Virus record (IMG/VR): IMGVR_UViG_3300038424_000856
Length of the DNA: 64,000 bases
Source of the DNA: an uncultured virus (IMG/VR IMGVR_UViG_3300038424_000856)
Lineage: Duplodnaviria > Heunggongvirae > Uroviricota > Caudoviricetes
Strand: one strand, 5' to 3'
Shown here piece by piece: positions 4,496 to 7,238 of the stretch; the stretch's first letter is position 1; each line of letters begins with the position of its first letter. The notes beneath the pieces are model-generated. The model saw only the letters and a list, made by a program, of their open reading frames with translations, was not told the origin of the DNA and made no database searches. The translations under genes and the position numbers were made by a program.

Positions 4496-4514
4496 GGTCG
4501 CTTAGTTTATTGGT
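4496..4514 (+). repeat. 19-nt direct repeat of the tRNA-Val(CAC) 5' end
   Basis: GGTCGCTTAGTTTATTGGT identical at 4496-4514 and 4684-4702. Confidence 0.9.
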
Positions 4515-4536
4515 GGAAAAAGTTGCCATCAATTTT

Positions 4537-4683: not shown

Positions 4684-4757
4684 GGTCGCTTAGTTTATTG
4701 GTAGAATAAAATCCTCACACGATTAAGAGATAGGTTCGATTCCTGTAGTGACCACCA
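4684..4757 (+). tRNA. tRNA-Val(CAC)
   Basis: GGTCGCT/AGTGACC acceptor; AATC-CTCACAC-GATT; A73-CCA. Confidence 0.9.
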
Positions 4758-4763
4758 ATTTAT

Positions 4764-4816
4764 GCCAGATAGCCCTGCAGGCAAATTCGTTTCATGAGCG
4801 AATTGTTCTGGCACCA
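4764..4816 (+). ncRNA. 53-nt T-armless mini-tRNA-like element with a CAT loop and ACCA end
   Basis: GCCAGA/TCTGGC-A-CCA; hairpin GCC-CTGCA-GGC; hairpin AATTCGT-TTCATGA-GCGAATT. Confidence 0.65.
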
Positions 4817-4823
4817 GTTTAAG

Positions 4824-4967
4824 TTTGTTAGAAAGTAGTGTACAGATACGATAAATAAATTGCACAGTTTAGTAGTAGCAACTATAAGGGTCTAATATGT
4901 TAAAGTTTTAGACACGAATTAAAACAAGAGATGGTGGAGAATCGGGATTCCGTCAGTTTCTAACAAA
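4824..4967 (+). ncRNA. Unnamed multi-hairpin RNA A
   Basis: Perfect 11-bp terminal helix TTTGTTAGAAA/TTTCTAACAAA enclosing about four hairpins; no ORF. Confidence 0.6.
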
Positions 4968-4975
4968 TAATGATT

Positions 4976-5076
4976 TGAGATACACGCAGCAATAAAACTT
5001 TGTCGGGCAACCGACTCCACGTTGTAGAGAACAACATTAAAAGGTTCCTCAGAAAAGAGTGTAAATCGGTATCTCG
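4976..5076 (+). ncRNA. Unnamed multi-hairpin RNA B (CAGCAA type)
   Basis: Terminal helix GAGATAC/GTATCTC, ACGCAGCAA, hairpins GTCGG-GCAA-CCGAC and GTTGT-AGAGA-ACAAC. Confidence 0.65.
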
Positions 5077-5086
5077 TTAATTTAAT

Positions 5087-6313: not shown

Positions 6314-6599
6314 TTTGTGACATAAGTGACCTTACGCTAACCTAAATGTGTTAGAGGAAGTTCGCGGCATCACAGCAGATGATTGGGAGAATCAGTAAAT
6401 GTTGCAACCGAGCCGTAGCCAGAGAAAAACTGGTAGTGAGCCTTGAAAGGGGTTAATCGGTATGATTCGTTAATACCACAAATTAGATGCAAGTGCAAAT
6501 AGGGACAAGAGTAGTGCTGCTCGTTATAAAGTCTGGGTAATAGCACGCTTAGAGAAATGTAAGGATAAAACAGAACCGCGGCTATGTCTGTGTCATAAA
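6314..6599 (+). ncRNA. rnpB: RNase P RNA (compact, phage-encoded)
   Basis: P1 TTTGTGACATA/TGTGTCATAAA; P2 CCTTAC/GTAAGG; P4 strands GAGGAAGTTCGCGG (6354) and AACAGAACCGCGGCTAT (6569); GCAAGTGCAAATAGGG (6489) and TAGAGAAATG resemble conserved bacterial segments. Confidence 0.88.
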
Positions 6600-6686: not shown

Positions 6687-6842
6687 TAGATGTGGTAACA
6701 GCAATTAAATATTGTTAAAACAAAAAACCCCAAAAGGGAATAAATCCTGCGAAACAGGTCGTAGCGGTGGCTACGCTAAAAACGCTCAACAGGGGTAAGT
6801 TGTAAAAAGAGCTTCGGAGATAACCGTAAATTCCGCATCTAG
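6687..6842 (+). ncRNA. Unnamed multi-hairpin RNA C (CAGCAA type)
   Basis: Terminal helix TAGATGTGG/CCGCATCTA, TAACAGCAA, hairpins CCTG-CGAAA-CAGG, CGTAGC-GGTG-GCTACG, CAAC..GTTG, CGG-AGATAA-CCG. Confidence 0.65.
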
Positions 6843-6899
6843 TATATTCTTTCTCTTCGTGAGAAAGATGAAGTTTTCCTCTCGGAAGGGAAACTTTAT

Positions 6900-7073: not shown

Positions 7074-7238
7074 AACAACGGATACCTACAGTTAAATCCT
7101 GACGTATTTGATACTCAGGACAATCACGGGTAATAAGTAGGTAATTAAAGTTTACCGAAGACCGTGTTAGGAGGCCACAATCGAAAGCAGTGGCTTTGCC
7201 GTTGGACGAGATTCCAACAGGTTATTAAATCCGTTGTT
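7074..7238 (+). ncRNA. Unnamed multi-hairpin RNA D
   Basis: Perfect 10-bp terminal helix AACAACGGAT/ATCCGTTGTT enclosing TCCTGA/TCAGGA, CACGG/CCGTG, GGCCAC/GTGGCT and GTTGGA/TCCAAC stems. Confidence 0.7.

Follow-up and report, generated by a model that had tools for sequence, protein, structure and literature searches.

The question raised by this locus is how an RNA gene of only 53 nucleotides, with the acceptor end and anticodon-type loop of a tRNA and no T arm, comes to stand among the full-length tRNA genes of a huge phage, and what it might do there. T-armless tRNAs are known from animal mitochondria. At the level of titles and abstracts, the literature offered no counterpart from phages or bacteria, and pseudo-tRNA entries in the tRNA tables of huge phages may hold such forms. 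The element occupies positions 4764..4816 (+) of the window, the 64,000-nucleotide stretch of viral DNA that was analysed, and belongs to a T4-like peatland huge phage whose 365,299-bp virus record has a GC content of 33%, is rated 100% complete and encodes capsid, portal, terminase and sheath proteins of the T4-like type. The 24 sequencing runs that contain the phage are peat or wetland metagenomes.

ARAGORN predicts 54 genes in the 365-kb genome, 53 tRNAs and a tmRNA, and the 53-nt element is not amongst them, nor does it have an Rfam match at E<=5. It lies 6 nt downstream of the CCA of tRNA-Val(CAC) (4684..4757, +), a distance that is the same in both phages known to carry the element and that falls within the 3-10 nt of nine close spacers between ARAGORN tRNAs on the same strand, bearing out an early remark in the initial annotation that the element is spaced like a real tRNA. 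The genome also encodes a CCA-adding enzyme, three RNA ligases, RlaP, PTH2 and an RF-1-domain protein (297 of the 339 ORFs scanned, 130-1500 aa). Together with the tmRNA and the 54 ARAGORN genes, the CCA-adding enzyme, ligases, RlaP and PTH2 are equipment for tRNA conflict, and jumbo phages are described as carrying RNA-repair kits against tRNA attack in the accessible part of PMC7824862. Other genes of note in this genome are a NAD salvage set, PARP-like and ADP-ribosylglycohydrolase genes, three DruA-like and three Mom-like genes (G000; L182, L184-L188, L192), and a gene for a DUF2828 protein.

Structure prediction yields a three-way junction made of a 6-bp terminal helix, a 3-bp hairpin, a long hairpin and an unpaired ACCA tail, with a minimum free energy of -19.0 kcal/mol (z -3.2) that was equalled by one of 200 shuffles. 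Of the 14 rows that a descriptor for T-armless forms returned in the 365-kb genome, only two reach a folding energy of -19 kcal/mol or lower; these two, the 53-nt element and one other mini-tRNA, lie inside the tRNA array. On the folding model, the T-armless fold of the element is real, and the arrangement agrees with that first described, namely a 6-bp acceptor stem plus ACCA, a small hairpin and a 7-bp stem with no T arm. All parts lie on the + strand. The acceptor 5' strand (4764..4769) pairs with 4807-4812 and, like the acceptor 3' strand with its discriminator A and encoded CCA (4807..4816), is invariant in the two known versions of the element, the second of which comes from a sister phage, L009. 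A seventh acceptor pair would be U-U in the window version and A-U in L009. A U-A linker (4770..4771), which can be aligned to U8-A9 of a paralogous tRNA-Ile, leads to a 3-bp GC hairpin with a 5-nt loop at the place of the D arm (4772..4782), which is the same in 11 of 11 bases in both versions and has none of the conserved D-loop bases. There follows a 7-bp anticodon-type stem with a 7-nt loop (4784..4804; loop 4791-4797), whose two outer pairs are made from former variable-loop bases, and the former variable loop (4803..4806) is joined straight to the acceptor 3' strand, T-arm positions 49-65 being missing.

The loop carries CAU at 4793-4795, as originally noted; it is not fully canonical, because the equivalent of position 37 is a G (4796), as against A37 in 28 of 28 CAU tRNAs sampled. 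The predicted minimum-free-energy structure adds two pairs inside this 7-nt loop, shrinking it to 3 nt. Cofolding through the palindromic loops favours a homodimer (about -48 versus 2 x -19), a strand-swapped form that is not diagnostic. An alternative assignment of the long hairpin as a degenerate T arm was rejected: it has no U54-A58 or G53-C61 register and fits an anticodon arm plus variable loop. Of the canonical tRNA (RF00005), the element has the acceptor stem (6 bp, or 7 in L009), discriminator and CCA but lacks the T-arm cloverleaf, and its long loop shows neither a G53-C61 pair nor a U54-A58 register.

In gross architecture the element resembles the T-armless mitochondrial tRNAs of nematodes and mites, with which it shares the absent T arm, an acceptor stem, a reduced hairpin at the D position, an anticodon arm and a similar length. 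This likeness, together with the invariance of the anticodon-like loop and CCA, would suit a true T-armless tRNA decoding AUG or AUA in the manner of nematode mitochondria. Unlike the mitochondrial type, however, the element belongs to a phage that infects a bacterium and has an encoded CCA, a junction of only 1-2 nt in place of the TV-replacement loop, and a 7-bp anticodon stem, and it coexists with three full-length CAU tRNAs in the same genome. Moreover, the portion of PMC12221289 available describes the T stem as a contact site of bacterial EF-Tu and an adapted factor as a requirement of armless tRNAs, whereas the co-adapted EF-Tu typical of the mitochondrial systems is missing here: PF00009 had no match in the phage genome (control 14/14), a result that covers phage genes only. 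There were likewise no matches for MetRS, Ile/Leu/ValRS or TilS (0 each; controls 14/14). With none of these proteins encoded by the phage, a decoding role is very improbable.

Comparison with initiator and isoleucine tRNAs narrows the possibilities further. The CAU loop had at first been connected with tRNA-fMet and the VapC-type toxins that target it. Initiator tRNAs are marked by a run of three G-C pairs in the anticodon stem and a 1:72 mismatch, as stated in published abstracts and in the accessible text of PMC9976931; in the element, 1:72 is G-C, and the three pairs beside the loop are C-G, G-C and U-G in the window version and U-G, G-C and U-A in L009. The absence of both marks speaks against an initiator tRNA or a mimic of one, and the fMet/VapC idea is weak because these features are absent and the ancestry leads instead to a tRNA-Ile. 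For tRNA-Ile2, the determinants read by IleRS include A37 (as t6A), C4-G69, C29-G41 and A73 in the same portion of PMC9976931. The element has CAU and A73, but G37, a C-G pair shifted to position 3, and C29-G41 in the window version only. It was rejected as a good IleRS substrate, since t6A37 is impossible with G37 and C4-G69 is shifted, and G37 makes the loop unlike that of host Met or Ile2 tRNAs.

Charging with methionine via CAU and A73 is possible, which brings in the idea of a dedicated aminoacyl carrier, most likely for Met, that would be hidden from EF-Tu and would either feed a non-ribosomal transferase or sequester a synthetase or amino acid. For MetRS, a CAU anticodon placed on a tRNA-Val body is enough (PMC9976931, as far as the available text goes), and the small hairpin, purine pair and 7-bp stem of the element could stack into 11 layers, compared with 10 in the normal D/anticodon domain. 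On the other hand, the determinants for IleRS listed in that text are lost (no A37, C4-G69 shifted, C29-G41 replaced by U-G in L009), the phage has no synthetase or TilS of its own, and no obvious aminoacyl transferase was seen among the 297 ORFs scanned, so that such a carrier seems a poor candidate.

The window version is found, letter for letter, in four IMG/VR contigs and one metagenome contig, and identical copies in separate contigs mean that it is not an assembly error; contigs from four of the 24 DNA runs showed no other letters in the element. Only two sequence versions are known. The second was found in L009, one of 26 loci collected through a neighbouring gene, at L009:3548-3600, where it is also 53 nt long and 6 nt after tRNA-Val(CAC), and it recurs in two metagenome contigs. 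Viral pattern searches returned real copies in 4 of 4 (all identical to the window), 5 of 42, 5 of 30 and 5 of 8 matches; a further viral search with 13 matches gave five mini forms, three Ile paralogs and five unrelated sequences, and three of five metagenome matches were real. A GTDB search gave no matches, INPHARED nothing beyond tRNA fragments, and a covariance model (R1) recovered only its training sequences from 88 sources and nothing from 32 further records (mostly fragments, five at least 90% complete, a set without a positive control). No further homolog was found in 1.39 Mb of loci, and no third version in the viral, metagenome, GTDB, INPHARED or covariance-model searches. Amongst 12 distinct contexts of tRNA-Val(CAC), two have the mini form, one (L012) has a full tRNA-Leu(UAA) and nine have other sequence; a unique short form whose close relatives hold a full tRNA-Met or tRNA-Ile at this place is therefore not what is seen. 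Descent from the tRNA-Leu(UAA) of L012 was considered and rejected, since the two have no more in common than the outer four acceptor pairs and ACCA.

The two versions differ at 8 of 53 positions (15% divergence) with no indels, by seven transitions and one transversion, and no pair is broken. The changes comprise one double change from A-U to G-C, three one-sided changes that still pair, one change from U-U to A-U, and a swap of two purines, 4783 and 4805, which go from A/G to G/A in L009 and could form a 26-44-like pair. Five of the eight substitutions fall in the 7-bp anticodon-type stem, all of which still pairs, and the 7-nt loop, the 11-nt small hairpin, the six acceptor pairs and ACCA are unchanged. 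By comparison, the four-fold sites of 11 ORF pairs nearby differ in 109 of 281 cases (39%; Fisher p 8e-4 against the 15% of the mini form), and the mini form falls inside the span of identities, 60-100%, seen for 13 orthologous tRNAs. When the changes were placed at random in 200,000 trials, all pairs were kept in 5%, and in 24% when starting from the other side with one break allowed, so that pair retention alone is weak evidence (P 0.05-0.24). Retention of pairs, loop and tail together occurred in 0.2% and 1.7% of 200,000 trials (P 0.002-0.017), with a loop-plus-ACCA criterion picked after the data had been seen.

These numbers bear on the possibility that the element is a young pseudogene, that is, a duplicated tRNA-Ile now under drift after a single deletion took out its T-arm hairpin, with the similarity of its two versions owed to recent exchange of the surrounding block. 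Between the window and L009, identity is 95% for tRNA-Val, 90% for the structured RNA downstream and 85% for the mini form, the least conserved of the three, and because both neighbours are more alike than the mini form, the whole block may have been exchanged recently. The very narrow distribution would also fit a pseudogene, as would the exact removal of a hairpin in a plausible single event, the prevalence of transitions (7 of 8), which often keep G-U pairing, and a pair-shuffle covariation control that, with two sequences only, was not passed (246 of 500 shuffles score as high). Nor would it be the only tRNA remnant of the array, given that the first ~20 nt of tRNA-Val(CAC) are duplicated near 4496-4520, ahead of a small ORF. 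A simply deleted pseudogene, as the initial annotation had proposed in one of its two readings, is nonetheless argued against because the L009 version keeps the fold; there are no indels, and change is absent from the remaining 45 positions, among them those of every loop and of the tail. Drift would also have to account for a new GC hairpin and for a 2-bp stem extension that pairs with different bases in each version. Decay is judged the less likely course, and the element is real, probably selected, and narrow in range.

The sequence of a likely parent adds to this argument. When the anticodon arm and variable loop of the window version were compared with 854 distinct tRNAs, drawn from the genome and the collected loci, the best match, 18 of 21, was a tRNA-Ile(GAU) at C1:285523-285596, the other 853 reaching 14 of 21 at most. 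This is the genome's second tRNA-Ile(GAU) and lies 6.4 kb upstream of the element, outside the window. It again ranked first when the T arm was removed from 488 CCA-ended tRNAs (score 51 versus 39.5, z 5.1), and it is the only one of 53 CAU or GAU tRNAs sampled that has G37, as the mini form does. In the alignment, T-arm positions 49-65 are missing exactly, pair 3:70 is missing on both strands, U8-A9 are kept, a GC hairpin replaces the D arm, the variable loop is recruited into the anticodon stem, and position 34 differs, GAU in the tRNA-Ile versus CAU in the mini form. The element thus appears to derive from the genome's tRNA-Ile(GAU, G37), a direction read from the alignment, and its tRNA-derived, T-armless nature as first described is upheld by both the fold and this paralogy. 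Relative to tRNA-Ile and tRNA-Ile2, the mini form has A73 and, in the window version, C29-G41 in common, with this tRNA-Ile its closest full-length relative, and differs in the lost T arm, the replaced D arm, one acceptor pair fewer and a G37 that excludes t6A. To judge from the alignment, the changes build structure and are not decay; a pseudogene would need two separate one-base losses that removed both partners of 3:70. The L009 version matches the tRNA-Ile paralog at 14 of 21 positions (z 3.1, second rank behind a tRNA-Leu), and this weaker match implies either greater change along the L009 lineage or conversion of the window copy by the tRNA-Ile. The G37 tRNA-Ile, itself a possible nuclease-evasion variant, was found only in the window's own population. 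Another unusual tRNA of this array is tRNA-Thr(UGU) (2831-2904), which has C at position 33 and is 100% identical in L009; tRNA-Thr(UGU) is named as the P2-OLD target in the part of PMC12445682 available.

Downstream of the element lies a conserved structured RNA of ~100 nt with a terminal helix that closes it (4976..5080, +), which follows straight after the mini form in L009 and after the tRNA-Leu in L012. Six distinct versions are known, including those of L009, L012, L134 and L216, with a paralog after tRNA-Val(GAC) at C1 ~267160-267245, and there was no Rfam match for it in the window. MascRNA-type elements are known as processing signals, and the 53-nt element might similarly be a minimal substrate for RNase P and a 3' nuclease that releases or stabilises the structured RNA behind it. 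Structured RNA begins 4-8 nt past the CCA in both phages, a full tRNA-Leu takes the same place in L012, and the acceptor stem and RCCA are invariant. Yet tRNA-Val, 6 nt upstream, could already serve this purpose, the paralogous RNA directly follows tRNA-Val(GAC) with no mini form between them, and the invariant CAU loop would be left unexplained, making a mere role in processing improbable. Three unannotated intergenic RNAs with long terminal helices are found nearby, at 4822-4970 (absent from L009), 6688-6845 and 7076-7238. A candidate for the 5' processing ribozyme is an RNase P RNA-like gene at 6318..6599 (+), which scores 44.1 bits with RF00010, below the gathering score of 100, and combines a conserved catalytic core with a reduced specificity domain that the model leaves unaligned; it might be adapted to substrates that have no T arm. 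A literature search for phage RNase P RNA found nothing.

With YrlA, the tRNA-like domain of tmRNA and mascRNA, the element has in common that it is a small RNA with part of the tRNA fold and, as expected, ends of the RNase P and CCA type. Unlike tmRNA, it has no T arm, and YrlA is described in the accessible part of PMC4201824 as mimicking the D arm, T arm and acceptor stem, whereas in the mini form the anticodon arm is retained and the T arm lost. It is not a Y RNA of the YrlA type, having no T arm and no Rfam match, and no TROVE/Ro60 match was found in the phage genome. Elsewhere in the window, at ~1035-1090 and inside a longer structured region, a T arm, a 7-bp acceptor hairpin with a 3-nt loop and a D-arm-like segment occur in a YrlA-like, circularly permuted order, and a GOLLD RNA (165.5 bits) with an embedded tRNA is found at L193:1988-2453 (C1 ~267,988-268,453).

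What is kept and what is lost instead suggests a tRNA mimic, kept by selection but not used in translation, whose binding partner would be a host protein which reads tRNAs. This is the favoured reading, at a probability of roughly 0.45, because the unchanged parts are the ones by which proteins recognise a tRNA, and the elbow on which EF-Tu depends has been lost. A copy of tRNA-Ile(G37) would have lost its T arm exactly and pair 3:70 from both strands, exchanged its D arm for a 3-bp GC hairpin, lengthened its anticodon stem to 7 bp and, in the same step of origin, come to differ at position 34 (GAU/CAU). The RNA would be co-transcribed with the tRNA array and probably released like its neighbours, by an RNase P-type 5' cut and 3' trimming to the encoded CCA. 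A promoter scan gave little more than chance, 14 candidates against 11.9 expected. Having no T stem, it would not be delivered by bacterial EF-Tu, and as a free RNA it would display a CAU stem-loop and an ACCA acceptor end, which may bind and titrate a host protein that reads those ends. The likeliest partner would be a tRNA-attacking defence effector, such as an anticodon nuclease or CCA-tail enzyme, aimed at Ile2- or Met-type tRNAs, with MetRS or TilS less likely. As far as the available portions of the sources go, Cas12a3 grips the acceptor stem and CCA and cleaves a truncated tRNA without a T arm (PMC12851939), and loop changes in phage tRNAs are put down to anticodon nucleases (PMC10264068).

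The tRNAs by which phages counter retron-Eco7, PrrC, PARIS, P2-OLD and VapC are similar to the mini form in their place in tRNA arrays, in altered loops near nuclease sites (here G37) and in the company of RNA-repair genes. They are, however, full-length tRNAs that replace a cleaved host tRNA, whereas the mini form probably cannot translate and could only bind. Counting against a decoy, the phage counter-measures described in the accessible parts of PMC11555353, PMC12445682 and PMC10264068 are replacement or resistant tRNAs and not decoys, and G37 sets the loop apart from that of a host Met or Ile2 tRNA.

A second mini-tRNA in the same genome (C1:266964-267018; L193:964-1018) has the opposite design to the 53-nt element. 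In 55 nt it combines an acceptor and RCCA with a T arm and a single 5-bp arm that bears a 5-nt loop, and it has no anticodon arm. Another phage record carries two tandem copies (L212:1264-1318 and 1207-1261, - strand), and amongst these three copies 13 of 17 pairs change on both sides, a level reached by none of 500 shuffles. A fourth copy lies in a third record (L219:1501-1555; covariance-model E 2e-12), and all four follow a tRNA with a CUA anticodon. The 55-nt model matched 14 of 44 records at E<=0.01, the other matches being weak (E 4e-6 or worse); two of three weaker matches inspected were a full tRNA or part of one. The family has no Rfam match. As read from this covariation, the clade shows retention of arm-deleted, CCA-ended RNAs under structural selection, which is no proof of a function for the 53-nt element but suggests support for a mimic. 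The two types were also considered as halves of a split tRNA and rejected as such, their acceptor strands not being complementary. Near these copies, a degenerate 70-nt tRNA-like gene (27 bits; C1:266893-266962) separates the CUA tRNA from the 55-nt mini-tRNA, and three tRNA-ended RNAs with large insertions, one of them a tRNA body with a ~120-nt D-loop insert, come right after the tandem copies (L212:810-1200, - strand).

A broader and more doubtful proposal is that arm-deleted mini-tRNAs form a kit evolved by the huge phages of this clade, with the 53-nt and 55-nt types as members; they would be processed like tRNAs and serve as decoys, each against a different class of tRNA-targeting immune effector. 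If true, such a kit would be an RNA-sponge form of counter-defence distinct from tRNA replacement and repair. Should the 53-nt element be functional, phage tRNA arrays hold small tRNA derivatives that are missed by ARAGORN and Rfam, and this one, short enough to be easily synthesised, could be used to probe decoy versus replacement roles of phage tRNA genes. Its traceable parent tRNA would also offer a rare view of the birth of a tRNA mimic.
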